DNA from: an uncultured delta proteobacterium
Lineage (GTDB): Bacteria > Desulfobacterota > Binatia > Bin18
DNA: 64,000 bases
NCBI GenBank assembly: GCA_963733195.1
Contig: CAVTCR010000009.1
Coordinates: forward strand, 96,001-160,000
Direction: 5' to 3'
Shown: piece by piece, positions 21,236-62,381 of the stretch
Layout: every line of letters starts with the position of its first letter
Position numbering within the stretch: the stretch's first letter is position 1
Made by a program: the position numbers and the translations under genes
Notes under the pieces: model-generated
Told to the model about the DNA's origin: nothing
What the model saw: only the letters and a program-made list of their open reading frames with translations
Database searches by the model: none

Positions 21236-22216
21236 ATGTATGATCTCAATCGGCTTTTTGCTTTGCACCAAGCCGTGGAAACCTTCGACCTTTCTGCTCC
21301 GCCAACAGTGCGCCTTGTCTCTCCTGACACCGTACTGCCGCTCCGTCGTGTCGGAATTCTGTGTGGGTCATTTAACCCGCTGACGTTTGCCCATACCGAA
21401 CTTGCCAACCAAGCGATCGAGGTATTCGGACTTGATCACGTATTCTTTACGCTTGCCAAAGTCACAGTCGATAAAGAACAGGTGACCGGCATGAGCATAG
21501 AGGATCGCTTGTTGTCACTGTCTCTTTATGCCGAACAGCACACGAGGCTTGGAGTTGCGCTCGTTAATCGCGGACTGTATTTCGAGCAAGCCCAGGCATT
21601 TCACTCGTTGTTTGGAGACCAGACTGAGTTGAACTTTCTCATTGGCATGGACAAACTGCTGCAAATCTTCGATGCACGGTATTATCACGATCGGGACGCG
21701 GCGCTGAGGCAGCTCTTTAGTCTTGCCTCACTGATTGTTGCGAATCGCGGAGATATGGATGAGCAAAGTTTTACCCAATTACTCGATCGCCCAGAGAATC
21801 AACCGTTCCGACAACATATTCGCTTCTTTACTCTTCCGGAAAGCATCACCGATCTGTCCGCAACCCAAGTTCGCCAGAACCTCGCTGCAGCGCAGCCAAT
21901 CTCAGCGTATGTCCCTCCAGAAGTAGAAACATTCATCAGCGAAACCCGTGCCTATCAACCGCCGCTTCACTTCGACAATGAAGTAATCGACGCTTATGCT
22001 GTTCGCCAGACCTTGCTTGCCTCGTTGTACGTCGATCGTTCCTGGGTGGAGCAGGAAGTGGATTTTCACCGTCTTGTAACCGTCGCGCTCTCATCAGATG
22101 CACAAGGTCAAGCATTACGTCATACCGCCGACAGTAAAGACCTTGCGCGCTTGGTTCGCTCTCTCTCCCTCAAGCCTACAGCCTTGCGTTCTTTTTCTCC
22201 CCCCCGTGACAACTAA
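21236..22216 (+). CDS. Cytidylyltransferase-like/NadD-type nucleotidyltransferase
   Basis: GSFNPLTFAH (HIGH-like), FLIGMDK and LSATQVR motifs. Start uncertain (21188-21236). Confidence 0.8.
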   Translation: MYDLNRLFALHQAVETFDLSAPPTVRLVSPDTVLPLRRVGILCGSFNPLTFAHTELANQAIEVFGLDHVFFTLAKVTVDKEQVTGMSIEDRLLSLSLYAEQHTRLGVALVNRGLYFEQAQAFHSLFGDQTELNFLIGMDKLLQIFDARYYHDRDAALRQLFSLASLIVANRGDMDEQSFTQLLDRPENQPFRQHIRFFTLPESITDLSATQVRQNLAAAQPISAYVPPEVETFISETRAYQPPLHFDNEVIDAYAVRQTLLASLYVDRSWVEQEVDFHRLVTVALSSDAQGQALRHTADSKDLARLVRSLSLKPTALRSFSPPRDN

Positions 22217-22307
22217 AAGCAGGGGTGCTTCGTTCTTTACTCTCCGGTTTCCTCATCTTACAGGCACCATAGCCCTTGAACCACGAAGTTTATATAATGT
22301 AGGAGTC

Positions 22308-23204
22308 ATGGAGCAGCCAACTACAACTCTTGTCATCCTCTTCGCCGACATTAGTGGGAGTACCCGCCTGTACGAAACCCTCGGTGATGCACTTGCTCGG
22401 CAGCGGGTTGCCGATTGTCTGTCGGTACTCACCGAAGCGATTCAGCAATGTGGGGGAACAGTCATCAAAACTATCGGCGATGAGGTGATGAGTACGTTCC
22501 CGAGTGCCGAAGTTGGGGTTCGGGCTGCCTGTGCCATGCAGGAGGCCCTGGCTGAGCGTGCTGCGCTCAGTAAAACCCCGCTCACCATTCGGGTCGGTTT
22601 GCACTATGGCCCTGCCCTGATCGAAGCTGGCGACGTTTTTGGTGATGTCGTCAATTTGGCGGCCCGGATTGTGGGTCTCGCAAAGGCGAATCAGATTCTC
22701 ACCTCACGCCAAACTGTTGACAGCCTTCCAGAAACAATGCGCACGATGACCCGTCACGTTGATCGCGCGCCACTCAAAGGGAAGCAAGAGGAAACCGATA
22801 TTTATGAAGTGATTTGGCGCGAGGACGAACTCACGCGCATGGAAGGCCCAAGCCTCTCTCCGCTCCCGACCACTTCAGGGACCCGGCTCAGTTTGCGCTT
22901 TCGCGGTAAAGAACTGGAAGTCAACCAAAATCACTCCGCGATCACCCTTGGTCGTGGGCAAGAGAATGACTTGGTGATTGCTGACGAATTCGCTTCACGG
23001 TTACATGCCCGTATTGAGTTTCGCCGCGGCAAATTCGTCCTCCTCGATCAAAGTACCAACGGCACCTTCGTCGCCACCCATGGAGAGAAGCCGTTGTACC
23101 TGCATCGTGAGGAATACCTGCTCCAGGGCACAGGAGCCATCAGTCTTGGACGTCCACTCGAAGGCGAGCCTCCAACCGTTATTCATTTTACTTGTGAACC
23201 GTAA
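22308..23204 (+). CDS. Class III adenylate cyclase with C-terminal FHA domain
   Basis: LFADISGST, IKTIGDEVM, IRVGLHYG, DVFGDVVNLAAR; FHA LGRG...ASRLHA...STNGTFV. ATG at 22308 after AGGAG. Confidence 0.92.
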   Translation: MEQPTTTLVILFADISGSTRLYETLGDALARQRVADCLSVLTEAIQQCGGTVIKTIGDEVMSTFPSAEVGVRAACAMQEALAERAALSKTPLTIRVGLHYGPALIEAGDVFGDVVNLAARIVGLAKANQILTSRQTVDSLPETMRTMTRHVDRAPLKGKQEETDIYEVIWREDELTRMEGPSLSPLPTTSGTRLSLRFRGKELEVNQNHSAITLGRGQENDLVIADEFASRLHARIEFRRGKFVLLDQSTNGTFVATHGEKPLYLHREEYLLQGTGAISLGRPLEGEPPTVIHFTCEP

Positions 23205-36563: not shown

Positions 36564-38160
36564 ATGCTATTTACTGAGTCTGCTGGTGAACATCGTCCAG
36601 TCTTTTATCACCCCAAAGGAGAGACGTCCCGACTCGTGACGTTGTCCGTGCCTGAGCGGCTCGACTACTTCACTCGTCTGCCGCTCTTTGAGAACATTCT
36701 CGATCAACTCTTTGAGAAGCGTCCAGTCGTCGCTGCGGACGGAAAGAAACAGATTCGCGACCTGTCCGTGCGCGACGCACTCGTCGAACACGCCGAGTTC
36801 TATGAAGTCCCAGCCAACACTGCCGTCTTTCAGGAAGGCAGCTTTGGTGAGCATCTCTTCATCGTTCTTAAAGGCACCGTCCGCACCAGCACCCATGTCT
36901 CCTTGGATAACGAGCGTAAGGCCGCCGTCAGGCTGGAAGATCTCAAGGATGGGGCGTTTTTTGGCGAAATGTCGGCACTATCGATGAATGCCCATCTGCT
37001 CACTGCCGAAACCGTCACACCGACGTTCTTGTTGCTCGTCCCGCAATTTATCGTCCAAGAGCTCGCGACACTCCAGGAACCACCTCTTCCTTCGATTCCT
37101 CGATTCCCCGATTTTCGCAGTCTGATTATGCAGGAGTACGTGCGGCGAGCCGTGCAAACCCTGATCCGCCGTATCCCAATGCTTCGCTTCACTTCCGACA
37201 ACGACATTGCGAAGCTACTGACAAAAGTCGAGCTGAAGACCTTCGAGGCTGGAGACATTATCTTTGAAGAAGGCGACCCGGCTGACGACTTGTACGTTAT
37301 CCATCAAGGATTCATCAAAATCTCCAAACGTGACGAAACCAAGCAACGTATCCTGAGTTATCTGAGCGAAGGGGATTGTTTTGGTGAGACCGGGGTTCTT
37401 GCCAACGCGCCTCGTTCGGCCAGTGCCACGGCTATGAGTCGGACTGAATTACTGGTTGTGCCCGGCCCACAATTTCAATTGCTCGTGAATGCCAATCCAC
37501 AAGCGATTCAAGAAAGTCGTGGAGTCGCAAACCTGCGCCGCTTGGACGCTGATATGGCACAGGACGTTACCTTTATTGGGGTACGGTTGCAGTTTCAAGC
37601 CGAGGTCATGCCTAACCTCGATGTCCTGGCGATCGACGAGACGCTGTGTGTCCGCTGCGATAACTGTGTGAAAGCCTGCGCTGCCGCCCATGATGATGGG
37701 ATCTCCCGCTTAATCCGCAAGGGCACTATTTTTCAGGAAATGTTACTGCCCACCGCCTGCCGCTTCTGCCAAGACCCAGTGTGTCTCTTATGTAAGTCTG
37801 GCGGGATCAAGCGTGACAAAGATGGGGATATCTACTTCACTGACAGTTGTATCGGTTGTAGTGGGTGCGCCCAGCGGTGCCCGTACGGCAACATCATTAT
37901 GGTCGATACCGAGGAGCTAGAGCATTTGACACGGCCAACTTTAGCTGATCAGCTCTTTCGCATTGGCGCCCAAAAACGCGAGGAAGAGATCCCCACAGAG
38001 CAAACGACCGCGGTTGAAGAAGGTGCCGGTGAAGTGCGACCTCGACAAAGGCCATCTCTTTCCCGCATGTGTGAATAACTGCCCGACCCAAGCGATTAGA
38101 CGTTATCGTGCCGATGAGCTTGATGTCATCATCGCCGGGCAACGTAACAAAAAGTCCTAA
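36564..38160 (+). CDS. Tandem cyclic-nucleotide-binding domains fused to a multi-[4Fe-4S] ferredoxin; frameshift near 38000
   Basis: FFGEMS and CFGETG...PRSASA cNMP motifs; CVRCDNCVKAC, CRFCQDPVC, CIGCSGCAQRCPYG; the shifted frame supplies KCDL...PACVNNCPTQAI. Confidence 0.88.
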
Positions 38161-38183: not shown

Positions 38184-39257
38184 ATGCGGTCACCCGCACG
38201 TTGGTACGTCGTCGCGTCGATACTTGTAGCTCTGTTGAACCTTGCCTATTACTACCATTACACCACCCACTTGGTTGGCCCGCCTTCGGGCCGCACGTTT
38301 GAAGGGTTGTTGCTGGGGAATCTTGGGTTTGCCGCCATGCTCGGCGCACTCCTCTACAGCGTACGCCGTCGCTTCTTGAGCCGCGCCATGAACGCGATCC
38401 GTGTGGACCCAGACACACGGCGCAAACTCAAGGAAGGGGAACGACATGCACTTGAGCAGTTACAGAATCTGCAGCGACAGGTCATGCAGAATGCCGCGCT
38501 ACGCGTGTCTGCCGTCCGTCGCCAAGCCAGCGGCATCCTTCGCCAGACCGGTATGAAGCGCTACCTGTATGCTCAGGTTTCCGCTGGACCTGGGGGACGC
38601 GGCACACGCCTGTCCATTGGCCGACGCGAATGGGGTGGCCGTCTCCAGACCTGGTACTACTGGCATCTGATGTTAGGGTGTTTGTCGATTCTGTTGATTC
38701 TCACCCACGCCGGGTTTCGTTTCGGTAACCTTGTCGCTGTGCTTGCACTCGTCTGTCTAATTGGCGTGGTTGCGACGGGGATCTGGGGGTACATCATTTA
38801 TCAACTCATACCCACCGCACTGACCAAGGTTGAAGAACGGGTCGAAAAGACTCCCGAAGAGTTGCGCGACGAATTACAGGAAGTGAATCGAAGGTTGGCC
38901 ACTATCACCCAAAAGAAATCGCAGATCTTTCATGAGATCTATCAACAAGAAGCAGCGATACCGGGAGTGAGTCTCGAACCCACGTGGCGTTGGTTATGGG
39001 CACCGGCAGAAATTGCCCGCGACACGACCCGTCCAGATCGTCTGCGCCTGATTGTCAAAGAAATCCCCAGCCCCGAACAAGAAGATTTCCGCGAAATGGT
39101 CCGGTTACTCTTCCAGAAGGAAAAACTTGAGGTCTCACTCTACCCGCAACTGCGGTATGATTATCTGCTGAAGATCTGGCTCAGCCTGCATATTCCGCTG
39201 ACTGCTGGGCTGATGATCTTTTCACTAATCCACATTGTATCGATCCTCCACTACTGA
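38184..39257 (+). CDS. Polytopic membrane protein with four TM histidines (cytochrome b/ferric-reductase-like)
   Basis: Hydrophobic helices carrying WYYWHLMLG...LILTHAG and WLSLHIPL...SLIHIV, i.e. His pairs 13-15 residues apart. Confidence 0.7.
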   Translation: MRSPARWYVVASILVALLNLAYYYHYTTHLVGPPSGRTFEGLLLGNLGFAAMLGALLYSVRRRFLSRAMNAIRVDPDTRRKLKEGERHALEQLQNLQRQVMQNAALRVSAVRRQASGILRQTGMKRYLYAQVSAGPGGRGTRLSIGRREWGGRLQTWYYWHLMLGCLSILLILTHAGFRFGNLVAVLALVCLIGVVATGIWGYIIYQLIPTALTKVEERVEKTPEELRDELQEVNRRLATITQKKSQIFHEIYQQEAAIPGVSLEPTWRWLWAPAEIARDTTRPDRLRLIVKEIPSPEQEDFREMVRLLFQKEKLEVSLYPQLRYDYLLKIWLSLHIPLTAGLMIFSLIHIVSILHY

Positions 39258-39277: not shown

Positions 39278-42200
39278 ATGATCAAGCTCACGATACTGAC
39301 CGGAACAGACGCAGGGAAAGAGATCACGCCAGCAAGTGATCCGATTATCCTTGGACGGAGTAGCACCTGCACGATCGTGCTCCATGATGCGGCAGCATCT
39401 CGGCGTCATTCCAGTATTGAACGGCGCGGGACCGACTATGTGTTGACCGACTTGCAAAGCGGCAACGGCACGTTTGTCAACTCACCCGGAACTCGGATTC
39501 ACGCACCATATACGCTGCAGGATGGTGACGAAATCCTCATCGGGAAAAGTCGTGTCCGTATCGGATTATTTATACAAGCCGAAGAAGACGAAGCAGCGAA
39601 AGTCCCCGTACAGCCATCCTCAGCGGCGATCTCTACAGGTTCCGCACAAGTTGACACGACCTCCGGGACAGAACTCGCTCAGCCTGTCCAAATACCTCCA
39701 CCCGCCGCTGATGCAGGACTCAATGCCGTCCATCAACCGGATGTGCCGATCGTCGTCACCATCGTCAGTGGTCCAAACCGCGGTATGGTCTACTCTCCAG
39801 CCCGCGAGGTATTTTCCATTGGGCGTGCAACTACGTGTGATATTGCACTGACCGATTCCACCGCCTCACGTGTGCACGCCACCATCAAACGGGAAGCAGG
39901 GAAATATCGCCTTTACGACGAGAATAGCGTCAACGGTGTCTATCTGCGCACTCCGCAAAATCGTGTCTATCATGCAGATCTGGCTGACGGCGATACGATT
40001 TATATTGGCCAGAACCAGTTACGCGTAGAAATTTCTCTGACGCCACCACCCATCGCGACGGGTAACGAGGATGCCACACGGATCTCCGGTACCATTGGCG
40101 GGAAGAGTTTCACGTTCACTCTGAAAGCACTCGGCAGTAACGCGCGAGCAGCACAGACGGACGAGGCGACCCACTTGGTTACCGGACAAAGCGGCGCGAC
40201 TACGCCCGAAGAAGCAACCAGTGACGTCCCCCAGTCTGTCGCGGCCCAGGGGGGGCCAAAAATTGCACTGCGAGTCATTGCGGGAAAGGATCAAGGAACT
40301 GTTTTCACACCTCCTCCAGGGTCAGATCGTTGTACGATTGGCCGCGGCGAACAAGCAAACTTTCGCTTACAGGACCGTGGGGCGTCGCGTATTCACTGCG
40401 CGATTGAGATTTCTCCTGCCGGATTTTTTCTGGTTGATGATGGCAGCCTCAACGGCACCTTTCTCAACCAGGCTACTGAGCGGGTCACGCGCGTGGCCCT
40501 CAAGGGCGGAGAAGAGATTCAGCTTGCCGATACTCGTCTGAAGGTCGAGATAACACCGCCAGAAGGTGCAGCAGCAGCCGAGGGCGTTAGCGAGGAAAAG
40601 ACAGCACACGTCCCATACCATGCACCACCCGCTCCACCATCTGCAACACCGAGCGAACCAGCACCGATCGTCCTTGTGCAACCCGCAACTGAGAACGTCA
40701 GATCGCGGTCTGCAGCATTCAAAGATCGCCTAGCAACCATCGCCAAACAGAATGGTGTCACACTCCGACCGTTCACCGTTCCTGGAACACCCCGGCAGTG
40801 GGTAGCGCTTGCCTTGATGTTGTTGGCAGCACTCAGTTCGTATGGGTTCGCAGTGCTCGGTCGACAAGCGTATTTTTCTGGTGGCCCCATTTCGGAAAGT
40901 CACGCTAAACTTGAGCAGCAATGCACGTCGTGTCATCCAACGTGGGGTCTCCAGCCAGTGAATGCCACGTGCGCTGCAACAGACTGTCACGCTGATGTAT
41001 TGAAGGTTAAAGACAATACTCGCGACGACTGCGTGAGTTGTCATACCGAACACCGGGGCCGTACCTTCGCGATCAAGGGTGGGGAAGCCCAGTGTTGGAG
41101 CTGTCATAAAGCTGGGATGAACGTTCGCGCCTATGCCTCTCGCCCGATGGGCGTATACCACACTCAGGTATTCTCTGTAGCTGAACAGCTTGTTCCACAA
41201 CCAGGCAAGGTTCCTACCCAAGGAATCCAGCCAGCCGCGCTAATGACTGCTCGCGAGACCTGGCTGAAAGATTTCACCGCTCAACCGACTGGACTCAAAT
41301 ATGCCCATGCAGCACACGCGGCGGATGTTTTAGAAAAGAACAAAAAGCAGGAACAGTGTCTGGATTGCCACGTCAAGTTGCTGGATGGGCAGTTCACACC
41401 GTTCCCAACTCACGCCCAGTGCATTGACTGTCACAAAGAAGTTGCCAACCAAGATCCACAGGTCGCAAAAGCAAGTGCCTCGGAGAAGTGTTTACTGTGC
41501 CACACCCAAAAGGACGGCGGTATCACCCGTGTGAAACAGGACGTAAATTTTGTCGCCTTCCAACATACCGATCATGGGCAAATGCGTTGTGTACAGTGTC
41601 ATGCTGTAGTGACGGCTGAGACGGAGTATCGTCCGGTGCTGCGCTCCGCAGCCGCATACCCGATGCCGATGGACGCCTGTTATTCTTGCCATCAAGACAA
41701 GAAAGTCACAATCGCATGTTTGGACTGCCATCGCCAACATCACAGCTATCCGTCAACCACTGACTTAGTCCAAGGATGGTTCGGCAACCTTCCTTTCAGC
41801 AGCGTCTTACTCACCTTCGTCGGACTGGTCGGCGCGATGGGCGCATATACGTATATGGATATGCGCCTTGCACGTCGCTGGTTAGCCTCGCTCGAAGAAC
41901 CTCCAGCTGCCCCTGCCGGCGGTGCAGCAGCAGGCTCCGCTGCTCAGGGTGCTGCCGGAGTCCCGCCACCACCTCCGCCAGCTGGTGAAGGCGGCGTGCT
42001 CCCCTACCCAACTGTTGATGCCGCTACCTGTATTTCATGTAGCAGTTGCTATGACTCGTGCCCAACCAACGTCTTGGAAGGTGACCACACAACACACAAG
42101 TCTACGGTAGTCAATCCTAATGCGTGCATATCGCTCACCGAAGGTTGCACTATCTGTCAGGACGGCTGTCCGACCGGCGCGATTCGCGTCACGACCGCAC

Positions 42201-43186
42201 CGTTAGTGAAGGAAGTCGAACGTCCACAGACTGACCAACATAACGAAAGCAACCTTCCTGGAGTCTTCTTGGTTGGAGAAGTCATCGGAGCCGCGCTCGT
42301 CAAGAAAGCAGTCAACCAAGGTGACCAAACCATTCGTTATATCGGTAACCGCAAACCTCGTATTGCCGAAGCGCAGTATGATGTCATCATCGTTGGTGCC
42401 GGCCCTGGTGGACTTGCGGCTGGGCTCGAAGCAAAACGGCTGGGGCTGCGGTACCTCATTCTCGAGCGTGAGAGCATTGCCAGCACGATTCAGAACTATC
42501 CCCGCGATAAAGCTGTGCTAGCCGAACCGGTGTTGTTGTCTATCTACGGCTTGCTGCCAATGATGGATGCAAAGAAAGAAGCCTTGGTCTCTTTGTGGGA
42601 GGAGATTGTTCGCAAAAGCGATCTCCAGGTCAACGTTCGTGAGGAAGTTACCGAAGTAAAGAAAGTCAGTAATCTGTTTACAGTAACGACGGTTAAAGGA
42701 TCGTATCAGGGTGCGTATGTTGTTCTGGCGACCGGAACCCGTGGCAACCCGCGCAAGATTGGAGTTAAAGGCGAGGACAATCCCAAGGTCACCTATAACC
42801 TTATCGATGCTGCGGAATGGAAAGGGAAGAACGTGCTTGTAGTCGGTGGCGGTGATAGTGCAATTGAAGCTGCGGTCGCTTTGTCGAACGAACCGGGGAC
42901 GACGGTGACGTTGTCCTATCGGCGCGGAGAATTCAGCCGCGTTAAGCCACGCAATGAGCAAGCAATTAAAGAACAAGCAAAAGCAGGGCGACTGACCTTG
43001 CTGTTTAACTCCAGCGTCACCGACATTAGCGACAAAACAGTCAAGATCAAAGTCGGTGATGAAGTACGAGAGCTAGAGAACGACGCCGTCTTTGCACTGA
43101 TCGGCGCCGATCCGCCGAAGGCTTGGTTAGAAAAGATGGGGGTTAACTTTGTGATCGTGAAAGAAACCGTCGGCGGTGGGTGGTAG
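39278..43186 (+). CDS. Fusion: 3xFHA - TM - multiheme cytochrome c - TM - 2x[4Fe-4S] ferredoxin - FAD/NAD(P)H oxidoreductase (TrxB/YpdA-like)
   Basis: Three GR...SRxH...NG FHA motifs; 9 CxxCH plus one CX4CH; CISCSSCYDSCP and CTICQDGCP; VGAGPGG, ATG, VVGGGDSA and YRR motifs. Confidence 0.9.
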   Translation: MIKLTILTGTDAGKEITPASDPIILGRSSTCTIVLHDAAASRRHSSIERRGTDYVLTDLQSGNGTFVNSPGTRIHAPYTLQDGDEILIGKSRVRIGLFIQAEEDEAAKVPVQPSSAAISTGSAQVDTTSGTELAQPVQIPPPAADAGLNAVHQPDVPIVVTIVSGPNRGMVYSPAREVFSIGRATTCDIALTDSTASRVHATIKREAGKYRLYDENSVNGVYLRTPQNRVYHADLADGDTIYIGQNQLRVEISLTPPPIATGNEDATRISGTIGGKSFTFTLKALGSNARAAQTDEATHLVTGQSGATTPEEATSDVPQSVAAQGGPKIALRVIAGKDQGTVFTPPPGSDRCTIGRGEQANFRLQDRGASRIHCAIEISPAGFFLVDDGSLNGTFLNQATERVTRVALKGGEEIQLADTRLKVEITPPEGAAAAEGVSEEKTAHVPYHAPPAPPSATPSEPAPIVLVQPATENVRSRSAAFKDRLATIAKQNGVTLRPFTVPGTPRQWVALALMLLAALSSYGFAVLGRQAYFSGGPISESHAKLEQQCTSCHPTWGLQPVNATCAATDCHADVLKVKDNTRDDCVSCHTEHRGRTFAIKGGEAQCWSCHKAGMNVRAYASRPMGVYHTQVFSVAEQLVPQPGKVPTQGIQPAALMTARETWLKDFTAQPTGLKYAHAAHAADVLEKNKKQEQCLDCHVKLLDGQFTPFPTHAQCIDCHKEVANQDPQVAKASASEKCLLCHTQKDGGITRVKQDVNFVAFQHTDHGQMRCVQCHAVVTAETEYRPVLRSAAAYPMPMDACYSCHQDKKVTIACLDCHRQHHSYPSTTDLVQGWFGNLPFSSVLLTFVGLVGAMGAYTYMDMRLARRWLASLEEPPAAPAGGAAAGSAAQGAAGVPPPPPPAGEGGVLPYPTVDAATCISCSSCYDSCPTNVLEGDHTTHKSTVVNPNACISLTEGCTICQDGCPTGAIRVTTAPLVKEVERPQTDQHNESNLPGVFLVGEVIGAALVKKAVNQGDQTIRYIGNRKPRIAEAQYDVIIVGAGPGGLAAGLEAKRLGLRYLILERESIASTIQNYPRDKAVLAEPVLLSIYGLLPMMDAKKEALVSLWEEIVRKSDLQVNVREEVTEVKKVSNLFTVTTVKGSYQGAYVVLATGTRGNPRKIGVKGEDNPKVTYNLIDAAEWKGKNVLVVGGGDSAIEAAVALSNEPGTTVTLSYRRGEFSRVKPRNEQAIKEQAKAGRLTLLFNSSVTDISDKTVKIKVGDEVRELENDAVFALIGADPPKAWLEKMGVNFVIVKETVGGGW

Positions 43187-43265: not shown

Positions 43266-43853
43266 TTATGCAAAGAGATTGCGCACAGGTAATTGCAATT
43301 GCGGGAGAACCACAGACGTCAGCGTATCACCCGTGCGGAACAAGAGTGGTGCGCCATAGCAGCCATTCACTAAACGGAACATCGTGACTTCCCGACGGTC
43401 TGTGTCTACTAACCAATATTCGTCGACTCCATTACGTTCGTAGATGGCTTTCTTCTCAGTGCGATCACGTAACGCAGTTGGTGTTGAAAGGATCTCTACG
43501 ACTAGGTTCGGAGCAATCTCCAAAAACTTTCCACGGCGTGGAGTAGGGCCCGCCTGCAGTCGAGCGTAGGAGATAAAAGACACATCTGGTTCAAGAGTAT
43601 CGCCTGACGGGAGACGATAGCCGGCACTTGACCCAAACACCTCTCCCAACTGATATTGAGAGGCACAGTTGAAGAGCGGAGAAACAATTCGTGCTTCGGT
43701 ATTGGCATGCGGCCAGCCAGCAGGTGGAGTCATGACAATACTCCCGTTCAGCAGTTCGTAATGATTCGTATCGGAGTGTGGCAGTTCACTGAGCCACTCT
43801 TCAAACTCATCTTGAGTGAATGTTTCGGTAGAAACGAACGCAGTCTGTGGCAT
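43266..43853 (-). CDS. Uma2/DUF820 family PD-(D/E)XK endonuclease-like protein
   Basis: YELLNG, EPDVSF, APNLVVEILS, GVDEYWLVD. Confidence 0.9.
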   Translation of the reverse strand: MPQTAFVSTETFTQDEFEEWLSELPHSDTNHYELLNGSIVMTPPAGWPHANTEARIVSPLFNCASQYQLGEVFGSSAGYRLPSGDTLEPDVSFISYARLQAGPTPRRGKFLEIAPNLVVEILSTPTALRDRTEKKAIYERNGVDEYWLVDTDRREVTMFRLVNGCYGAPLLFRTGDTLTSVVLPQLQLPVRNLFA

Positions 43854-43955
43854 AATGTACACCAGCAGGGAAAATTTTCAGACGTTACTGTAGCACGAGA
43901 GCCCAAAGGCGGACAGATGCGAGGAATTCACTATCAGCCCTGAGAAGAGGTGCGA

Positions 43956-44907: not shown

Positions 44908-47900
44908 CTATCGCCGTCGGGCGATACGACCACCATCGCTTTTTTCTAGTGTCACTTCTTTAGGTGGCAATGAGAGAGTCTTGCCGTCGATCGTATCGAC
45001 TCTGGTAAAACGTACGACCGCTCGGTTGCTTTCGCTACGTACGTTGATGTCTTTGAACGATACCCTGTAGCTTTTGTAACCATCCAAGATACCCTTGAGC
45101 TTCGCAGCATCCTGCGCCGAGACCTCACCAAGCTGTACGAGCACGTCAACATTCTTATTTTCCCATGCCTGGCGATAGGTCGTTTCAAGCCAGTTCATCG
45201 CCTCTTGTTGGCTCAACGTCGCGGTTGGTGACTCGATCTTAGGAGGAGGCAGTGGTGGTGGTTGAGGTCGGGCTACTTCGATAGCTTTGACTTCAACCGT
45301 CCAACGTTTTGCCGCACTCTGCAATCCGTCCGGAGCAACAGCAATAGCAGACAACTGATAGGTGCCAGGCCTGGTCTCGGCGAAACGAAACCGTCCACTA
45401 TCCGTGCGCTGTGGACGAGCATCATTGATACTCCACAAATAACTCAGTTCTTTTCTCGTGCCTCCAGATACGCCAGTGATCTCTGCTGTTACGGTAAAAT
45501 CGACCGGTTTCCCGGCGTCGACAGTGAGACTGGTGTCCCCAGGGTCAACATCGATAATACGAGGCGGGACAGCCAGAACCTTCGGCGTCACGTTCCACGC
45601 CACTTGTACCTTCTTGTCTGCTTTATCAACCACCTCAACTTTCACCGCGTGTGACGCATCAGAAATGGATGCCGGGAGTTGCCAACTCCGACTCTCGCCT
45701 CGAGCCACCTCTTGGCCATCAAGCGACCAAACATAGACGAGGCGATCATCTTTATCGGGGTCGGAGGCCTGTACGGTAAAGCTTTGCTCTTCACCAGCTG
45801 TCATTTGAACAGAACCAGCTTTTGGTGAAACACTGGTAATAACCGGCGGACGTGGGGTGTCCTGCACCCGCACAGTCCAGATCTTCTCAAGCGGAGCATT
45901 CTTGCCATCCGAAATTACCGCTTTAACTTCTCGAACTCGGTCCCCACCATCGTCATACCCCGGTTGATAGGTCCACTTCTTTCCGTCTGTTTGTTTCTTG
46001 CCATCAAGAAGCCAGGCAAACTTGAGTGACTGCGGCTGCGCACTCTCCGCATCTACCACGAAAGGCAAGTTGCTTCCCTTCAGCAACTGTCATTTCACCT
46101 GTTGTCATCTGGTTTCGCTGGAGTCAGCTTTGGCGGCGGCGATACAATTCGGCTTCAGCCTGTTCAGGCTTTGCTTGCCGGCTTTGGCTTGTCTATTTAG
46201 CTGCTCGGCTTTCGGTCGTTCTAGCTTTCGCTTAGCTTGTCGGCTTAGTGGTTCGTTGGCTTGCTCGCTTTCGCTGGTCGAGGTTCGGCGGGCTCGGCTT
46301 TCGATCGTTCGGCTGGTCAGCCTTGGCTTGTCCGCTTTAGCGTGCGCTAGGTCTAGCCTGTTCGCTTTACTTGTCGGCGGCTTGGTTCTACTTTACAGTT
46401 TGTTATTAGTTCAGAAGATTGAAAAGCCCCGCTGAAATACAGGCCGAGGGCAGCCGCAACGGCAAGCGCAACCGCACCCGCGACAATCGGCGTGGACTGG
46501 CGCGAGGCAGAAGGGGTCGCCACAGAGACAGAGGAAACTTCTGGGCGGTTTTCTGATTGCGGAACCTGCTCAATAAGCGTCGGCTCATCTTCATCCGTCT
46601 TTTGCGGGCGAAGAGCTGATAGGAGGGCCAGCGCTTCTTCATAACTCGCTTGCGCCTGAGGGTAGCGCTTTTGTTGGAGCAGTTGGTCACCACTAGTGAT
46701 TGCTTTTTCTGCCTGCTTCTTTTGTTTTCCTTTAGAGCTGCGTGTTTGTTCTCGCAGCTCGTAGGCTCGTGTTTTAGCAGACTCAGCCTCTTGCTTTTGC
46801 TGCGCTACGCTGGCTTCTTGGCGGATCTGCTGCCAGCGGACAACCACTCGGTCAAACCGATCGAGCGCATCATCGAACTTTTCGTGCGTGAGCGCCTGTT
46901 CTGCCTCATGTAACAGAGACATTGCTTCTACGTGTTGACCAGGAAGAAACTCTTCGCTTTTGGCCGTCTGAGCCTCTGCCTGTGCAGCTACGGCTTTTTC
47001 TCGCGCCGCCACCGCCATTTGCTTCGTACGGGTGAGCCGTGCAGTCTCACATGCATTACTGAACAGTTCGCTGGCTTGGGCGAAGGCGACAACTGCGTCT
47101 TCAAATTTTTCCGTGGCAACCGCAGCCTCGGCCTGTTCTTTCACCGCTTGTGCTTTGCGGTAAAGCTCTTCAGCGTATTGCAGAGCGTGGGCAGTATCAG
47201 CTTCTTTCTGCCGTTCTTTCGTTTCCTGGCTTGCAGCTATAGCACGCTGCCGTCGCTCTTCTGCCTCAGCCTCGATTCGGGCACGTGCATAGCTCTGAGC
47301 GGCGCGTTCATAGTGCTCACGTGCCTGCTCATAGGCATGCGCCTTCCAGGCTCGTTCACCTTCGGATTCGTGACTTTGCGCTTCTTTCCAGATGGCTGCA
47401 GCAAAACTCGGGGCAAGTGTACCCGCCTCTTGTCTCGCTTGTAGCGCTTTTTGCTTCCCAGTCTCCGCATGCTCTCGCGCAACTTGTTGCTGCACTGCCT
47501 GAGCAAGTTTTACCAGCTGCTGCTGTGCCTGCTCGTAGTCACGTCGTGCAGAAGGAAAATCTTGCCGCTCTTCAGCGGTACGACCTTGCTCCAGGAGTTG
47601 TTGGGCTTGCGTCAGATCTTGAGGAAAACGGTGCGCAGCATCAGCCTCCATCACTGTGGACAACGCCTCCTCAGCATGTTGACGAGCAGTCACCGCCTGT
47701 TGCTTAGCCTGTTCGCGCTGTGCGGTGACTCCAGATTGGATAAAGAGTTCTTCCGCACGACGATAGACGCCAGTGGCTCCAATAAACTCCTGTTGCTGTT
47801 GGTGGCGTCCAGCTTCTGCTATAGCAGCAGTGCCCTGATTGAACTCGGTGGCTGCGTAGCGCGGGGCTCCCGCCTCTTCGGCTTTCTTTTTCGCGGTAGT

Positions 47901-50900
47901 GGCTTGTTTCTCCGCCTGTGCGGTCTCTTGGTAGAGTCGCTCATGTTCTCCGACCTCGACCACCTGAGCGTATGCCTGACTCGTCTGCGCATACCCGGCA
48001 AGCGCCGCTTCATAATCCTGCCCTTTGAACATCCGCTCGGCATCGGCTTCGCGCTTCTGCGCTCCATCCCATGGAGCTTTTGCCCACTGTTTCAGCGTAC
48101 TGGCCTTCTCTTTCGCCAGGAGCATCTGTCGGCGAGCAGTATCAGCTTCTTCTCGTGCCGCCTGTATATCCGCCTCACGCCGTAGCCGTAACAGCTGCTG
48201 GAGGGCCTGCTCATAGAAACTCGTAGCCTGGGCAAAATCCTGTTGCGCCTCTGCTTGTTGTCCTTGCTCCGTCAAGCGTTGCGCGCGGGTGAACTCCTGC
48301 GCGAAGCGCGTGTTCGCTTCTGCTTCTTCGGCAGCGGCACGTGCAGCCTCCAATCGTTGGCGAATGGCAGCGGCGGCTTGACGGGCTTTTTCCTGTTGTG
48401 CGTCATGAGCAGCTTGTGACCACAACGAACGTGCCTGCAAAAACTCCTGACTCGCTTCACTCCAGCGTTGCGCACGAAGATGTTGTTCCGCCTGTTGCTG
48501 AGTTTTAGTCACTTGTTGATACAACGCAGCGGCATACTGTTTTGCTTCAGCTTGTTCTGCTACGGTGCGAGCGTCCTCAGCCTGTTGACGAGCGTCGAGT
48601 GCCCGTTGTCGCAGCCGTTCAATCTCTGCCGCCTTACGGATCTCCTCGGCTTCTTGCCGTGCTTCTCTATAGAGTTGCGCGGCCCGATCATACACCTCCG
48701 CTGCTTCTGTATAGCGTTTGGCACTCCAGGCGCTGTCAGCTTCGCCTTCGCGACGCTGCGCCTCTGTATACTTTGCCCCAAACCATTCATCGAGTCCTGA
48801 GAGCCTGTTGCGTGCCTCAGCCACACGCCCACGAAAGGCTTCTGCTTTCTCTCGTTCGGCTTCCTGAAACGCATCACCAGCGAGGCGTTGCCACGTCTGT
48901 AGCGCTTGCTGGTATCCATCGACTGCCTGAGAAAAATTCTGACGTGTTTCCTCTTGTTTTGCGTGCTCAACAAGATGTGAAGCGTGGGCAAAGTCGTCGG
49001 CAAAGCGTTGGGCAGCTCCAGCCTTCTCTGCAACCTGACGCACATCTTCTGCTCGTTGTCGCGCTGCGGCGGCTTCCTGTTTCTGGCGTTCGTGCTGTGC
49101 AGCCTCTGCCGCTTTGGTCAACAACTCAGCCGCGCGCCAATAGCGCTGAATCGCGACACGTAGATCCTTGGCTTGTATTTGCTGTTCTGCGTCTTTTTGC
49201 GCTGCAAGCCCTTCTCGCCACAGGTCCGCCGCATAGCGAGCAGCGTCAGCCTTCTCAGCTTGTGCTTTCGCCGATTGGGCCTGCTCCTGGGCGTCGTGGG
49301 TTTCTTGCTGCAGTTGCTCGCGTTCGGCATTGGCCCGGGCTTGGGCATACGCCTGCGTTGCCTGCACATAGAGTTCCGCGGCACGACCATACTCTTGTTT
49401 TTGGTACGCGAGCTCGGCTTGCTGCGCTCCCTCTTGCGCTTTTGTCCAACTTGCTTTCGCCCAGGTTTGCAGCGCCTCACTACCCTGAACGACCGCTGTC
49501 ATCTCCTGCCGTGCGACATCGGCACGTTCACGCGCAACGAGGACAGTCGCTTCACGTGCTAATTGCTGAAACCGTTGCGTTGCCTGCGTATAGAAGTCGC
49601 GGGCAGCACTATATTGCTGCTGTTTCTCGTTCTCTTGCCCTTGCGCAGTGAGTCGTTGCACTTCTGCGTACATCGCAGCCGTTCGTTCCTTTGCTCCAGC
49701 CTGATCTGCTTGTGCTTGTGCTTGTTGGAGTTGCTGACGAACTGCCGCAATCTCTTGTTTTTCTTGTTCGAGCTCAGCCTCCTGTGTAGCTCGCTGGTAA
49801 AGATCACGTGCTTGCACGTACGCGTGCACGGCTTTTTCATGGGCCTGCGCTTGCAGGTGCGTATCGCCTTGCTTCTGGAAAATCGCCGCTTGCTGGTATG
49901 ATGGAGAAGCAAGCTCTCGAGCCCGTGCAGCATCAGCGCGGCCCTGTGCCTCTGTGGTTTGCCGTTGAACTGCAAACGCTTCCTGTCGCTGTCGTTCGCT
50001 CTGGGCCTGTTGCTGGGCACGCTCATACTTCTGCGCCGCAGCGAGAAATAACTCACGTGCTTGGGTGAATTCCTCGTGCGCTATCGCCGTATTCGCCCGT
50101 TGCTCCTGATCCACAGCCTCCTGGAAGAGGTTCTCAGCAAACTGCGCAGCTCCTTTTTCTTCTGCCGCAGCCTTCGCTGCAACCACGCGAGTTCGTGCTT
50201 TTTCGGCCTCTTCTTTCAAGGTCTCGCGGTAGGCAAGCTCGCGGGCGTCGGCAAAGAATCTTGCAGCTTCGCCATAGATCTGGGCCGATTGTTGAAAATC
50301 TTGTTTCTCTAAGAATTCGTCGGCTTGCGATTGCAGAGTCAGTCCGCGAGTATAACGGGTGCGAGCATGGTCACGTGCGCCATAGTGCTCAGCCTCCTCT
50401 TTGGCGGCAGCCATATTGTCTCTGGCTTGCTCTGCCTTATGCTTGGCCGCTGCAGCCTTCGCTTCCGTACCTGCTCGGTCAAATATCTGTATGGCCTCTT
50501 CGAACGCTTGCTGGGCGGCAGTGAAATCCCGCTCCCGTAGGCTTTTGGCTCCCTGTTCTTCAGACGTGCGTCCTTGCTGAAGCAGTGTCGCTGCCCATTC
50601 TGCAGCTCCTTCTCGCGTGGCGCGTTCGCGTGCTTCTCGCGCTTGCGTTTGAAACGGTAACACACGACGGCGTTGTTGCTCTTCTTGCAGTTCACGGATG
50701 CGCTGATCGATGTCCTCGTCTGCCGGGGCCTCTGTGCTTTTCTTCTCTTCCGTTCCAGGTCTTGGGATAATAAGCGTACCGGTTTCTTCCTCCTCTGGAC
50801 TTAAATTACGACAGGCATCTAACGCCTGCAGGAGGTCACGCATGCCGGGATAGCGACGGGTGCGGGTTTTGGCGATTGCGCGCGTCAGCAAGTCGGCAAA

Positions 50901-51638
50901 AGCGGTGGGCGGTGGACGGTCAAAGTGGGGCTCATTCTCCTTGTTGTCATACAAGACCCTGCGCAACACCTCATGTTCATCAAGCCCGCCAAAGAATTGC
51001 TTACCGGTGTACATTTCGTACATGACCATGCCGAGCGAATAAACATCAGCACTACCGTCGAGCGGCTCGTGGCGCAGTTGCTCGGGGGAAGCGTATTTCA
51101 GCGTCCCGATCACCATGCCGGTCTTCGTCGAATCTCCATCTCCAAGTTCTTTGGCAATACCAAAATCCATCACCACGACGCGCGAAGAGCGATCTTCAAT
51201 CATGATATTGGCAGGCTTGATGTCGCGGTGAATGATGGGAGGAGTGTGGTTATGCGCGTAGCCGAGCGCATCAGCAACCTGACGGGAGATAGTGAGAAGC
51301 TCGGGGAGCGGCAGCGGTCCCTTTTCACGGAGATACTTGCCGAGGGTCACACCCTCGATGTACTCCATGACAAAGTAGTAGAGGTTCAGACTTTCATCCC
51401 GTTCGATATCAAGCACTTTCACGATATTGTCATGCTTCAAACGAGCCATGACGCGCGCTTCGCGATAGAAGCGGTTCACCATGTCTTCATTTTCCATCAA
51501 GTACGCAGGCAGGACCTTGAGGGCAGAGATGGTCTCTAGGCGGGTATGGCGTACTTTGTACACCAAGCCCATGCCCCCCTGGCCGAGCGAGCCCACGACC
51601 TCGTACTTACGGGAAATCACCATTGCCGGCGTAGCCAT
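44908..51638 (-). CDS. Giant Hanks-type Ser/Thr receptor kinase: kinase, about 18 helical repeats, TM, repetitive linker, Ig/PKD-like domains, NTF2-like C-terminus (frameshifted at about 46100-46410)
   Basis: LGQGGMG, ALKVL, HRDIKPAN, MDFGIAK, YASPEQ; Ala/Glu/Gln-rich repeats; TM IVAGAVALAVAAALGLYF. ORF 44908-46086 has no signal peptide of its own and carries YxWxLDG Ig-like repeats. Confidence 0.85.
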
Positions 51639-51654: not shown

Positions 51655-52440
51655 TCAGTTGGCTACGGTCGGATCTTCAACGTACGACAGAAGAATAATC
51701 GTACTATTGTCGCGACCCCCACGTTCGTTGGCAAGATTCACCAGCGTATCACAGGCTTTTTCAAGATCTGGAGCCGTCTGTTCAATAATGCGGAGCATGT
51801 CCTCATCATCAATTACCCCGTGGATTCCATCGCTGCAGAGGAGATAGATATCTCCCGACTGCGGCCGTTCGAGGCGGACAGACGGTTGAACGAGCGGGCT
51901 AACGCCGACAGCTTGAGTCAGCACATGACGATGCGGGAAAGTTTTGACCTCGGTCGGTCCGATCTTCCCCTCTTTGAGCAACTGCTGCACCAACGAGTGG
52001 TCTTCGGTGAGGCGTTCAATCACCCCTTCTCGAACACGGTAGACACGGGAGTCACCAACATGACAAATTCCTGCAACACTCTCTTCTTCATCAAATAAGA
52101 CCGCTGCCACCGTGGTCCCCATTCCATTGAGGTTCGGGTCCCGCTGGCTCATCTCAAACACTTTGTTATTTGCTCTCTGGATCGCAAGGAAAAGGCGACG
52201 GCCAGCAACCGAAGACCACCCATTCTGGGTAGTGATAGGCGTCAGATCTTCCCCTTGGGTCTCCTGGAGAACACCATGCATCGTCTCCACAGCTAAAGCA
52301 CTTGCGCGCTCCCCACCGACGTGCCCGCCCATCCCATCCGCCACGATATAAAACGCCGCATCAGGGAAGAATCCTGAAGAATCCTCGTTTTTCGCGCGTA
52401 CCTTACCCGTGTCTGTTTTTACTGCGCCACAGATGGACAC
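51655..52440 (-). CDS. PP2C/Stp1 family Ser/Thr protein phosphatase
   Basis: RAKNED, VADGMGG, GMGTT, HVGDSR, LCSDG, GGRDN; lies directly upstream of the kinase. Confidence 0.95.
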   Translation of the reverse strand: MSICGAVKTDTGKVRAKNEDSSGFFPDAAFYIVADGMGGHVGGERASALAVETMHGVLQETQGEDLTPITTQNGWSSVAGRRLFLAIQRANNKVFEMSQRDPNLNGMGTTVAAVLFDEEESVAGICHVGDSRVYRVREGVIERLTEDHSLVQQLLKEGKIGPTEVKTFPHRHVLTQAVGVSPLVQPSVRLERPQSGDIYLLCSDGIHGVIDDEDMLRIIEQTAPDLEKACDTLVNLANERGGRDNSTIILLSYVEDPTVAN

Positions 52441-52730: not shown

Positions 52731-54101
52731 ATGAAGAAAACAATGTTGGTTATAGGAGTTGTGCTCGGCGCAGTGCTTTTTGTTGCTCCAGCTTTTGCCA
52801 GAAGTTTGAAATCCTCGTTGGAGAATACACTTTTTGCCGCTTCGCCAAACGATTCGATTTTTCTCACCATCCCCAACCCAGCTGCAGGCCAACCCGGATT
52901 CTCCTGATTCGTTGGTCTTCTATCAGCCGACTCCAACTCCAAGATCTTTGGCAAACCCATTCAGACCGGTGGTCCAGGTGGAATCGCTAGCCAGTTTGTC
53001 CGTACGTTGAGCAGTAACATCCTCACTGAAAGTGCTGTGGTTGCGCTGCCCTCCGGCAGTGCGGGGTTTGAGTATACATTTAACCCGAGTCTGAATGTTT
53101 TTGAGCGTAGCTCGATCGGCCTTGGCCCAATTTACAATGACCGGGTCAACACCCTGGGCAAAGGCGTATTTGCCTTTGGGGTTGCGTATGTACACCAGGA
53201 TTTTGATACATTTAACGGCCAATCGATCTCTAAGTTATCAACAGCCGACAAAAACCTCTTTTCCGGCCAGCAATCCGTATTCATTACAACAGGGATTGTC
53301 GATGCCCGGGTCAAGTTAAATATTAAAACCGACACCGCCGCTCTCTACGGCATCTATGGCCTCACCGACAGGATTGACATCAGCCTACTGTTACCGCTCA
53401 CCAATATCTCTTACGAGCGAAATCAACTCTTAGACAAGGGAGCCCTACCCTACTCAGTGATTTTGCCGCTTTTCTTCCTGATTCGCGCTGTGACATCTAC
53501 GCAGGCTCAAAATGATCAATGCCGGATCTCCGACTTTACCATCCTCAGACAAGGAACACGCTTTACCTTCCAACAAGGAACGTCAACTTCTACGGTTAAT
53601 AAGGTCGATAAAAGCCGCTTCGGCACCGGAGATATGGTGATACGAGGGAAGGCTCGTCTACTTGACAGGTCCTGGGGGAATTTTGGTGGATTGACCGAGT
53701 TGACCTTTCCCACTGGTAATGAAGACAATTTCCTAGGGGATGGCGCCTTCAAAGCACGCTTCTTGTTGTTGTACTCTCAGAGCTTCTTCTCTAACCGCGT
53801 GAACTTTCATTTGAATGGCGGGGGAAAGGTTACGACGCAAACAAGTCGCAAGGATACTCTGGAGTACGGCTATGCGATTGACTTTATGTTAACCCCACGT
53901 CTCTCGTTAGTAACAGAAATGATCGGCTCCTGGCGAGTAGACCCAGAAGGCCTACCGCAACACTTCCTAGATAGTGCTTTTGGTTTTAAGGCCAATCTAT
54001 ATCGGGGACTGATCGTTAATGTAAGTTTCCGTCTTCCTGCGACTGATGACGGACTACGGTCAGACGTCGTATATCTGGCCGGGTTAGAATACGACTTCTA
54101 A
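52731..54101 (+). CDS. Outer-membrane beta-barrel protein (MetA-pathway/SphA-like); frameshifts near 52900-52970
   Basis: GGAGGAG RBS and signal MKKTMLVIG...AFA; SIGLGPIYNDRVNTLGKG, GTGDMVIRGK, PTGNEDNFLG; C-terminal GLEYDF. Confidence 0.7.
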
Positions 54102-54114
54102 AGGAGAAACACTA

Positions 54115-54729: not shown

Positions 54730-54735
54730 GGAGAG

Positions 54736-56879: not shown

Positions 56880-56989
56880 TTGATTGTCCTTAGGCCGAAA
56901 TACAAGAAGACAAGGAATCAAGTCATTACGAGTTACCCATAATACGGGGAGCTAAGCACGAAGGCAGAAACAAAGGCCACAGTTTTGGC

Positions 56990-57069
56990 CGTCATTCCCG
57001 CGCAAGCGGGAATCCAGTTTTCTGCCCCTGGATTCCGGGTCGCGGCCTGCGGCCTTGCCCGGAATGACG
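56990..57069. repeat. REP-like inverted doublet (CGTCATTCCCGCG...GCGGGAATCCAG / CTGGATTCC...GGAATGACG)
   Basis: Two palindromic units in inverted orientation with CGTCATTCC/GGAATGACG ends. Confidence 0.8.
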
Positions 57070-57226
57070 AGTTGCCAAGAGCATCCGGTGCGAGCTGAGA
57101 ATTTTGTTCCTAAGCAGGAGCCACAGGCGACGAAGCACCCTTGCGTCGCGGATTGTATTTATGTGACAATTTCTTTTAGGGGGCTGCTCGTCACTTTCTG
57201 TGGTCGACTCTGTGCAGTAAGAACGT

Positions 57227-58492: not shown

Positions 58493-58656
58493 TCGCGAGA
58501 ACACACGGAGCACCGCATACTTTCTCCAGACAAACCGTCGCACTTCAGGTGATTCCCTGAGGGCTTCTCATATACAGTGTTTCACTTTGCGCTAGTTCAC
58601 CAATTGTGCTACGCTGCCTTGACTAGCGTACCGGGTGGGTAGGGAGGAAAACAATT

Positions 58657-62367: not shown

Positions 62368-62381
62368 GGGGGAGATTGGGG

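Follow-up and report, generated by a model that had tools for sequence, protein, structure and literature searches.

A protein joining three FHA domains, ten c-type heme motifs and a ferredoxin-flavoenzyme, and its four-histidine membrane neighbour: a candidate transmembrane electron exporter in Binatia

We analysed a 64,000-nucleotide (nt) stretch of DNA from an uncultured delta proteobacterium of the Binatia (GenBank assembly GCA_963733195.1, contig CAVTCR010000009.1, positions 96,001 to 160,000 of the forward strand), which is called the window here and whose own numbering is used throughout. The gene of interest is an open reading frame (ORF) at 39278..43186 on the forward (+) strand, which begins with ATG 21 nt past the stop codon of the upstream gene and encodes 1302 amino acids (aa). 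An earlier reading of the window (the original prediction) had described its product as a single unbroken polypeptide, and both the ORF list and the translation showed no internal stop. We refer to this fusion protein as P0001, to its 357-aa neighbour as P0002, to the cyclic nucleoside monophosphate (cNMP)-binding poly-ferredoxin encoded further upstream as P0003, and to the combination of ferredoxin and flavoenzyme as Fd-flavo. The three genes and the parts of P0001 (TM, transmembrane; K+R, Lys plus Arg; pLDDT, predicted local distance difference test) are as follows, with residue counts from an alignment of 20 full-length P0001 proteins, 14 of which begin with MIK.

36564..38078, + strand: P0003, cytoplasmic, with two cNMP-binding domains and a C-terminal poly-ferredoxin (Pfam cNMP_binding twice, E 1.1e-37; Fer4 families)
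38184..39257, + strand: P0002, a five-helix membrane protein of 357 aa, proposed to be a di-heme b wire (hydropathy, invariant His residues, co-location and fusion with Fd-flavo)
39293..39553, + strand: FHA domain 1, aa 6-92 (Pfam FHA 24-89, Yop-YscD_cpl 6-92; G26 and R27 in 20/20, S41 in 17/20, H44 in 19/20, N63 in 17/20)
39749..40021, + strand: FHA domain 2, aa ~158-248 (GarA/OdhI FHA structures, E ~1e-9; R183, S197 and H200 in 20/20, N219 in 16/20)
40268..40546, + strand: FHA domain 3, aa ~331-423 (third Pfam FHA stretch; PDB matches at 348-423 and 331-418; R356, S370, H373 and N392 in 20/20)
40799..40864, + strand: TM helix 1, aa 508-529, predicted to run from inside to outside (hydropathy; helix pLDDT 83-84 in a partial model; K+R flanks)
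40922..41731, + strand: decaheme cytochrome c module, aa 549-818, probably periplasmic (nine CxxCH and one Cx4CH; Pfam class III, c7 and paired-CXXCH families)
41789..41845, + strand: TM helix 2, aa 838-856, predicted to run from outside to inside (hydropathy; K+R flanks; counterpart of the N-terminal anchor helix in split Fd-flavo proteins)
41894..41995, + strand: Pro/Ala/Gly-rich linker, aa 873-906 (translation)
42008..42193, + strand: 2x[4Fe-4S] ferredoxin domain, aa 911-972 (Fer4_7 and other Fer4 families; eight invariant Cys)
42377..43150, + strand: YpdA-like FAD/NAD(P)H flavoenzyme domain without redox Cys, aa 1034-1291 (Pyr_redox_3; PDB 7a7b, E 1e-40)

From its N-terminus, P0001 therefore carries three FHA domains, a TM helix, nine CxxCH motifs and one Cx4CH motif, a second TM helix, a Pro/Ala linker, a 2x[4Fe-4S] ferredoxin and a YpdA-like flavoenzyme, which is the order of parts that had been read from the letters alone. 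Pfam searches placed FHA (PF00498) on three stretches (E 2.1e-49; 166.3 bits against a cut-off of 20.7), Paired_CXXCH_1 at aa 713-746 (29.9 bits, cut-off 20.6), Cytochrom_CIII at aa 755-828 (30.2 bits, cut-off 22.9), Fer4_7 at aa 917-968 (28.9 bits, cut-off 27) and Pyr_redox_3 at aa 1037-1289 (E 5.5e-50). Scores for the heme part fell below the cut-off for Cytochrome_C7 (20.6 vs 24.8) and for the NCBIfam QrcA and DmsE families. A search of PDB sequences with the heme loop gave as its best match the c7-like domain protein 8k9e, at an E value (4.8e-4) too weak for naming a fold relative, and an AlphaFold model of the segment from TM helix 1 to TM helix 2 had a mean pLDDT of 50.7 and was confident in the two helices only.

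A motif script located the nine CxxCH motifs at aa 549, 585, 606, 694, 715, 738, 771, 801 and 814, and the single Cx4CH motif at aa 565. The two hydrophobic stretches, at aa 508-529 (nt 40799-40864) and aa 838-856 (nt 41789-41845), bracket the heme motifs exactly and lie where the helices had been predicted (about 40800-40860 and 41790-41860). All 20 Cys residues between the helices fall inside the ten motifs, and since nine CxxCH motifs occur within 270 residues and every Cys is used, the motifs are not a chance pattern. The linker follows the second helix in the translation at aa 873-906, and the two predicted Fe-S clusters correspond to two ferredoxin-type groups of Cys, at 918/921/924/928 and 950/957/960/964, which use all eight Cys of the segment 918-964; the script found no Cys beyond residue 964. 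It also found no His in either TM helix, as expected from the claim that P0001 has no intramembrane cofactor of its own.

The original prediction had placed the hemes outside the membrane, and both the FHA and the flavin parts inside. The mean number of K+R per 20-residue flank in the 20 P0001 sequences was 3.65 before and 1.3 after TM helix 1, and 0.9 before and 2.8 after TM helix 2, in agreement with that placement under the positive-inside rule. FHA domains and NAD(P)H enzymes are cytoplasmic, and heme c is attached in the periplasm. Taken with the charge bias, these locations would leave a single consistent layout, with the N-terminus inside, the heme loop outside and the C-terminus inside.

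We searched for homologues of P0001 in 5.8 billion proteins and obtained 127 matches at E <= 0.001. Among the best 120 of these 127 there were at least 19 further full-length clusters (coverage of at least 97%, identity 42-85%, length 1222-1337 aa), drawn from ncbi, jgi, ena and lgn records and from contigs of up to 349 kb, and those with names came from metagenome-assembled genomes (MAGs) of Candidatus Binatia and Methylomirabilota. The cofactor sites were invariant or at least 90% conserved in the 20 aligned sequences, namely the ten heme motifs, the eight Cys assigned to the Fe-S clusters and the glycine motifs for FAD and NAD(P). Ten candidate distal heme ligands, nine His residues and M798, were also conserved, and Tyr1214, Arg1215 and Arg1221 were kept in 20/20. 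Phosphothreonine (pThr) is contacted by Arg, Ser, His and Asn residues of the FHA loops, and all three sets (R27/S41/H44/N63, R183/S197/H200/N219 and R356/S370/H373/N392) are present, each residue in 16-20 of the 20 proteins. Eleven more distant proteins of 1060-1465 aa carry 6-7 CxxCH motifs between two helices, a cytochrome part that precomputed Pfam annotation had overlooked; the ferredoxin Cys motif was present in all 11 and the GGGDSA motif in 9.

The modules of P0001 also occur apart. A search restricted to shorter proteins gave 12 matches, which included five proteins of 478-670 aa with the order FHA-TM-(9+1 heme)-TM that end a few residues past the second helix, and one of 699 aa (P0208) with the order TM-multiheme-TM-Fd-flavo and no FHA domain. 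A further protein, P0207 (711 aa), starts within the heme module and continues into Fd-flavo. As modules found separately elsewhere are joined here, P0001 is a true Rosetta-stone fusion, as had been proposed. No point was found in favour of an origin as an assembly chimera or a read-through of separate genes, and the identical order in the 19 other clusters from different repositories, the conservation of the ligands and the even G+C content along the gene speak against it, so that we regard the chance of an artefact as negligible. We hold the architecture of P0001 and its conservation to be very well established.

The flavin domain had been described as TrxB-like. The fold relationship stood, and the identity as a thioredoxin reductase proper did not. 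In searches of the PDB, the best solved relatives were the NADPH-dependent YpdA/Bdr enzymes 7a7b (E 1e-40) and 7a76 (E 1e-32), and thioredoxin reductases and ferredoxin-NADP+ reductases of the thioredoxin reductase (TrxR) type ranked far behind; the latter, which have a TrxR fold without the Cys residues and are the comparison for an enzyme with a fused ferredoxin, matched at E 8e-11 to 2e-4. The TIGR01292 profile for thioredoxin reductase scored 95.1 bits against a required 343.45, and no CxxC was found in the flavin domain of 20 homologues. The profile for YpdA/Bdr bacillithiol reductase (TIGR04018) was rejected as well (191.2 bits vs 339.9). P0001 shares with 7a7b and 7a76 the common two-Rossmann fold of an NADPH-type enzyme, and differs from them in being fused to a ferredoxin, in being membrane-tethered and in having a Gly in place of the conserved YpdA Cys, which lies beside the FAD glycine motif; in the family this position is Gly, Ala or Cys in 4, 11 and 5 of 20 sequences. 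Because of this variability and the lack of CxxC in 20 sequences, a disulfide or thiol substrate is unlikely, and the fused ferredoxin would be the natural redox partner of the flavoenzyme. The domain is better called YpdA-like, without redox cysteines.

A polypeptide without an intramembrane cofactor had been predicted to need the adjacent four-histidine (4-His) protein, P0002. Hydropathy and an AlphaFold model (pLDDT 78) gave five helices, with His161 and His175 on TM3 and His336 and His350 on TM5, 14 residues apart within each pair. These four residues were invariant in 18/18 aligned sequences, including four distant members of the family. Two long K/R-rich loops (22 and 19 K+R) are on the N-terminal side, which would set His161 and His336 close to the inner face of the membrane, with His175 and His350 close to the outer one. 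NADPH oxidases (NOX) hold two b hemes by two His pairs on their third and fifth helices. The placement of the His residues in P0002 has the geometry of a two-heme transmembrane wire, and we infer from it that P0002 may bind heme b. P0002 did not match the Ferric_reduct/NOX superfamily (PF01794), and the His pairs are present whereas the dehydrogenase fold differs.

A search for relatives of P0002 gave 73 matches, 71 of them at 49-96% identity, and none had a functional name; all were labelled 'hypothetical protein' or had no name, bar one with a DUF1049/YciS label. ESM Atlas likewise returned only clusters of hypothetical proteins. A profile of the family retrieved 4,993 representatives at E <= 0.001, 3,054 at 1e-10 and 200 at 1e-30 from 1.84 billion clusters at 50% identity, and most of the best 150 of the 4,993 were 260-300 aa long; one short relative is a 273-aa protein of Thermobacterium salinum (L009 7012-7833). 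Among 29 scanned members, 17 had sub-threshold Pfam matches to Ferric_reduct, DUF4405 or Ni_hydr_CYTB, which are di-heme b families. A search of this profile against PDB sequences yielded only chance-level matches to coiled coils, and the top fold matches of the P0002 model, TTYH channels at a TM-score of ~0.16, are meaningless. Four members of the family (P0309, P0336, P0356 and P0243) carry N-terminal extras, namely a GYF_2 domain, zinc ribbons or DUF6572, which hint at cytoplasmic partners other than Fd-flavo.

We scanned contigs with generic flavoenzyme patterns and obtained at least 80 loci, of which 17 (L001-L017) matched including the ferredoxin part (35-42% identity) and 63 held ordinary flavoenzymes of the TrxR/YpdA type; no full-length P0001 fusion was among the matches listed. 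The hosts of the 17 belong to the Bacteroidota, Ignavibacteriota, Acidobacteriota, Planctomycetota, Gemmatimonadota, Omnitrophota and Alphaproteobacteria. A hidden Markov model of the P0002 family matched in 17/17 of the Fd-flavo loci and in 0/63 of the others. The 4-His gene usually lies directly upstream of a gene for a helix, ferredoxin and flavoenzyme, and in three loci of Planctomycetota (L003, L013 and L015) the two form one ORF of ~750 aa; a natural fusion of 742 aa (P0052) is found in Engelhardtia mirabilis. In addition, nine homologues of P0001 and nine of P0002 lie on contigs of exactly matching length, and hence on the same contigs. The expected need for the 4-His protein is thus consistent with its presence beside Fd-flavo in every one of these loci, and we consider it likely that P0002 is the partner of P0001. 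A predicted complex of P0001 residues 825-1302, P0002 and two hemes scored 0.27 against a mark of 0.32, which weighs neither for nor against binding. In L017, a Bacteroidales MAG, the 4-His gene is split in two ORFs and Fd-flavo is fragmented (6956-9010), as pseudogenes or through assembly errors.

ORFs with 16-61 CxxCH motifs adjoin Fd-flavo in 15 of the 17 loci. In eight loci (L008-L010, L012-L014, L016 and L017), the cytochromes are followed by a conserved signal-peptide protein of ~545 aa (E <= 1e-5; for example L009 12455-14086), which has no Pfam family and ends in Arg-Phe in three of four sequences inspected. Outer-membrane barrels usually end in Phe, and this protein is probably an outer-membrane component, such that the split operons look like complete envelope-spanning electron conduits.

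These observations suggest a mechanism in which P0001 would be a bitopic-hairpin membrane protein with a ten-heme periplasmic loop between two cofactor-free helices and with its FHA and Fd-flavo parts in the cytoplasm. Electrons would pass from NADPH to FAD and the two [4Fe-4S] clusters of P0001, then to an inner and an outer heme b held by the His pairs of P0002 and stacked across the bilayer, and finally through the ten c hemes of P0001 to a periplasmic or outer acceptor. The whole would amount to a quinone-independent, NOX-like electron exporter made of unrelated parts. As the best explanation of the locus as a whole, we give an even chance to P0001 and P0002 forming such a transmembrane NADPH-to-c-heme exporter under FHA/cNMP control.

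The proposed scheme resembles the NOX and ferric reductase domain systems, in which a cytoplasmic NAD(P)H flavoenzyme supplies two b hemes on two helices and thereby an acceptor at the outer face. It would differ from them in that the flavoenzyme has the thioredoxin reductase fold and not the FNR fold, in the extra 2x[4Fe-4S] step, in the five helices of P0002 instead of six, and in an acceptor that is a built-in decaheme c wire and not O2, Fe(III) or MsrP. In the Hmc, Tmc and DsrMKJOP complexes of sulfate reducers, a membrane cytochrome b likewise connects periplasmic multiheme c with an Fe-S protein in the cytoplasm. These complexes differ in using HdrD-like CCG Fe-S proteins and NarI/NrfD-type subunits, with no flavoenzyme and no FHA domain; HdrD-like CCG and NarI/NrfD-type families were absent from the Pfam tables of P0001, P0002 and P0003 (best 24 of 24, 2 and 9 families). 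Published work touches on bacterial NOX and on MsrQ, which is paired with a flavin reductase of the cytosol (PMC5676040; PMC11564096; PMC12525009). From its structure, the P0001/P0002 system would appear to work like NOX or an Hmc-type link without being a member of those families, of TrxR or of YpdA, and it would be an uncharacterised variant among the transmembrane redox conduits.

The quinone pool could also stand at the centre of the system. P0002 would then be a quinone-reactive cytochrome b (NarI/FdnI/CbcL-like), and the decaheme and Fd-flavo would share the pool, with NAD(P)H not wired directly. In favour of this, CbcL and ImcH are quinol dehydrogenases that partner periplasmic multiheme cytochromes, and the Ni_hydr_CYTB family, which gave sub-threshold matches among relatives of P0002, is quinone-reactive. 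The quinol dehydrogenases CymA and NrfH are named as inner-membrane partners of periplasmic multihemes in a passage of a 2026 preprint, whose authors there prefer quinone reduction for a related FHA-nonaheme protein (bioRxiv 10.64898/2026.01.22.701106). On the other side, the fusion of the 4-His domain right behind Fd-flavo in three loci and the 17/17 co-location argue for a direct hand-over from Fe-S cluster to heme b. No quinone-site motif was noticed, although no search aimed at one was made, and we consider the quinone-linked arrangement unlikely, if the foremost of the alternatives to direct export.

The genes upstream bear on the electron donor. On the + strand the order is cyclase with FHA, transketolase, transaldolase-PGI, 6-phosphogluconate dehydrogenase, glucose-6-phosphate dehydrogenase, glucokinase, GH63-like hydrolase, 6-phosphogluconolactonase, HAD phosphatase, P0003, P0002 and P0001, with intergenic gaps of 21-114 nt from glucose-6-phosphate dehydrogenase to P0001. 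The segment 23420-35635 (+) thus holds a complete oxidative and non-oxidative pentose phosphate set, together with glucokinase and a GH63/mannosylglycerate-hydrolase-like enzyme. NADPH is a product of the oxidative branch, the genes of which, in this one genome, fit NADPH as the electron donor. Scans for promoters and terminators returned lower counts of sites than in shuffled sequence.

Outward flow would be favoured by the redox span and the membrane potential. Electrons might also travel inward, in which case the decaheme would gather them from periplasmic or extracellular donors such as Fe(II) oxidases and pass them through P0002 and the flavoenzyme to NAD(P)+ or another cytoplasmic acceptor. 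An FHA-multiheme protein is recorded in 27 Gallionellaceae genomes in a pangenome paper of 2023, as cytochrome cluster 403, a 'Forkhead-associated protein' with 10 CXXCH (PMC10734462). Like P0001, this entry combines FHA and ten heme motifs in one protein; it is a catalogue entry only, and the passage on it gives no flavoenzyme, architecture, partner or function. The 2026 preprint describes an 'NHC' cluster in the Fe(II) oxidiser Ferrigenium straubiae, in which an FHA-helix-nonaheme protein, expressed under all conditions tested, stands beside a five-helix protein without an InterPro match and a [4Fe-4S] protein; in the passage concerned, the function of NHC is called unknown and the combination of FHA with multiheme cytochromes previously unreported (bioRxiv 10.64898/2026.01.22.701106). 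Compared by description, P0001 shares with that system the cytosolic FHA, the membrane helix, the periplasmic multiheme c loop, the five-helix neighbour and a nearby Fe-S protein. P0001 differs in that its FHA domains number three, that a second helix and a tenth heme (Cx4CH) are present and that a ferredoxin-flavoenzyme is fused on; heme b in the five-helix protein is not proposed in that passage. None of our literature searches turned up an account of the fused protein, the 4-His family or the cNMP-FeS-flavo family; PMC9386147 and a preprint on peat proved irrelevant. Inward flow would run against the membrane potential and uphill to NAD(P)+, and would need a coupling device, of which none is visible in the three genes, and the upstream NADPH-producing genes suit the role of donor better. 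We therefore rate inward flow as rather improbable, a little below the quinone-linked arrangement. The direction of flow and the donor themselves, outward from NADPH, we judge to be evenly poised.

Several points weigh against the exporter as a whole. P0002 itself matches no Pfam or NCBIfam family, heme-protein families included, and its AlphaFold model has no PDB neighbour at E <= 0.001; of the 29 scanned relatives, one reached a curated Pfam cut-off (P0188, DUF4405, 27.3 vs 26.7 bits). In the alphaproteobacterial loci L001, L004 and L007, Fd-flavo and the 4-His gene are on opposite strands and separated by 2-5 kb, and a multiheme ORF is missing from the stretch covered in L002 and is only a fragment at the contig end in L004. 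The choice of NADPH over NADH comes only from the similarity to YpdA and the conserved Arg residues. No counterparts of P0003, of the kinase described below or of the pentose phosphate genes occur in L001-L017, so that the links to them come from one window. Finally, the related FHA-nonaheme protein is found in obligate Fe(II) oxidisers, for which the authors, in the preprint passage, propose inward flow toward quinone (bioRxiv 10.64898/2026.01.22.701106).

P0003 has no hydrophobic stretch, and its second cNMP domain bears an FGE...RSA-type cassette. It aligns with residues 426-809 of P0119, an 844-aa flavo-cNMPx2-FeS protein (30% identity, E 4e-46), whose N-terminal part is a homologue of the P0001 flavoenzyme; about 45 flavo-cNMPx2-FeS clusters of ~800 aa were among the matches listed. 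P0003 may add a second-messenger (cNMP) input to the exporter or a second entry for electrons. Its gene shows an apparent frameshift between ~37945 and 38017: the +1 frame is open over 37945-38160, beyond the annotated stop at 38076-38078, and up to 38160 it encodes the missing last ferredoxin motif (...C-x11-C-x3-C-P...), in alignment with the C-terminus of P0119. The cause could be a mistake in the assembly or a genuine lesion.

Three further genes are candidate regulators.

22098..23204, + strand: nucleotide cyclase of class III that ends in an FHA domain, first gene of the same-strand run (Guanylate_cyc E 2.7e-18, FHA E 1.9e-11)
46353..51638, - strand: Ser/Thr kinase of 1761 aa, with a membrane anchor at its C-terminus (Pkinase E 6e-50, translation)
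51655..52440, - strand: PP2C phosphatase, directly upstream of the kinase gene (PP2C_2 E 4.5e-12)

About 1,350 residues in the middle of the kinase are a coiled coil rich in Q, A, E and R, which accounts for the AT skew of -0.3. The FHA triplet might switch or scaffold the complex upon Ser/Thr phosphorylation, with the kinase and PP2C as candidates, and the FHA-cyclase could make the ligand of P0003 and be controlled by the same kinase. That the kinase controls P0001 is possible, at somewhat less than an even chance, and PP2C and the cyclase would likewise be putative regulators. The signalling load of the locus (three FHA domains, a cNMP-binding Fe-S protein, an FHA-cyclase, a kinase and PP2C) is unusual, and would suit a redox sensor in place of a conduit: the heme loop would report the periplasmic redox state, the FHA and cNMP parts would relay the signal and the flavoenzyme would only reset the sensor. 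Ten hemes, two Fe-S clusters and FAD far exceed the needs of sensing, however, and the relatives without FHA occur in operons with the 16- to 61-heme cytochromes and, in eight loci, the putative outer-membrane protein. We consider a sensor improbable.

To our knowledge, the routes described so far by which electrons leave the cytoplasm for multihemes of the periplasm or the cell exterior begin at the quinone pool. A direct route from NAD(P)H to cytochrome c, if true, would give bacteria a novel means of discarding or supplying reducing power beyond the cell. It would matter for the reduction of metals and humic substances, for the redox balance of little-known phyla of soils and sediments, and for bioelectrochemistry. 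Since the P0001 fusion names the partners of a large unannotated membrane family, the function of that family becomes testable. Tentatively, the 4-His family may be a new class of di-heme transmembrane cytochrome b that forms with tethered Fd-flavo a widespread quinone-independent NAD(P)H exit into multiheme wires, which in Binatia and Methylomirabilota would be fused into one polypeptide, FHA/cNMP-controlled and fed by the pentose phosphate route. An FHA domain on a respiratory-type protein would couple Ser/Thr kinase signalling directly to electron flow, and P0001 would then be the first component of an electron-transport chain gated by a pThr reader; our literature searches found nothing on FHA tied to electron flow beyond the note that the domain combination exists.

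The remaining features of the window include a second cytochrome cluster at 53007-64000 (+). No homologue of the ~545-aa secreted protein was found among the ORFs of the window.

9968-10999, 16348-17040 and 17498-18031: transposase genes (IS66, IS4/5 and IS1 types), among luciferase-like monooxygenase and enoyl-CoA hydratase genes
43266-43862, - strand: Uma2-family endonuclease gene, convergent on the 3' end of P0001
44400-44897: 165-aa ORF, unknown
44908-46086: PKD-like protein
53007-54101 and 60625-62367, + strand: Phe-ending proteins, possible outer-membrane barrels
57227-58492, + strand: secreted decaheme cytochrome
59184-60317, + strand: HbpS-like protein
62376->, + strand: multiheme ORF extending beyond the end of the window

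Three proteins of the second cluster were searched against L001-L017, and a single short cytochrome match was obtained, in L004.

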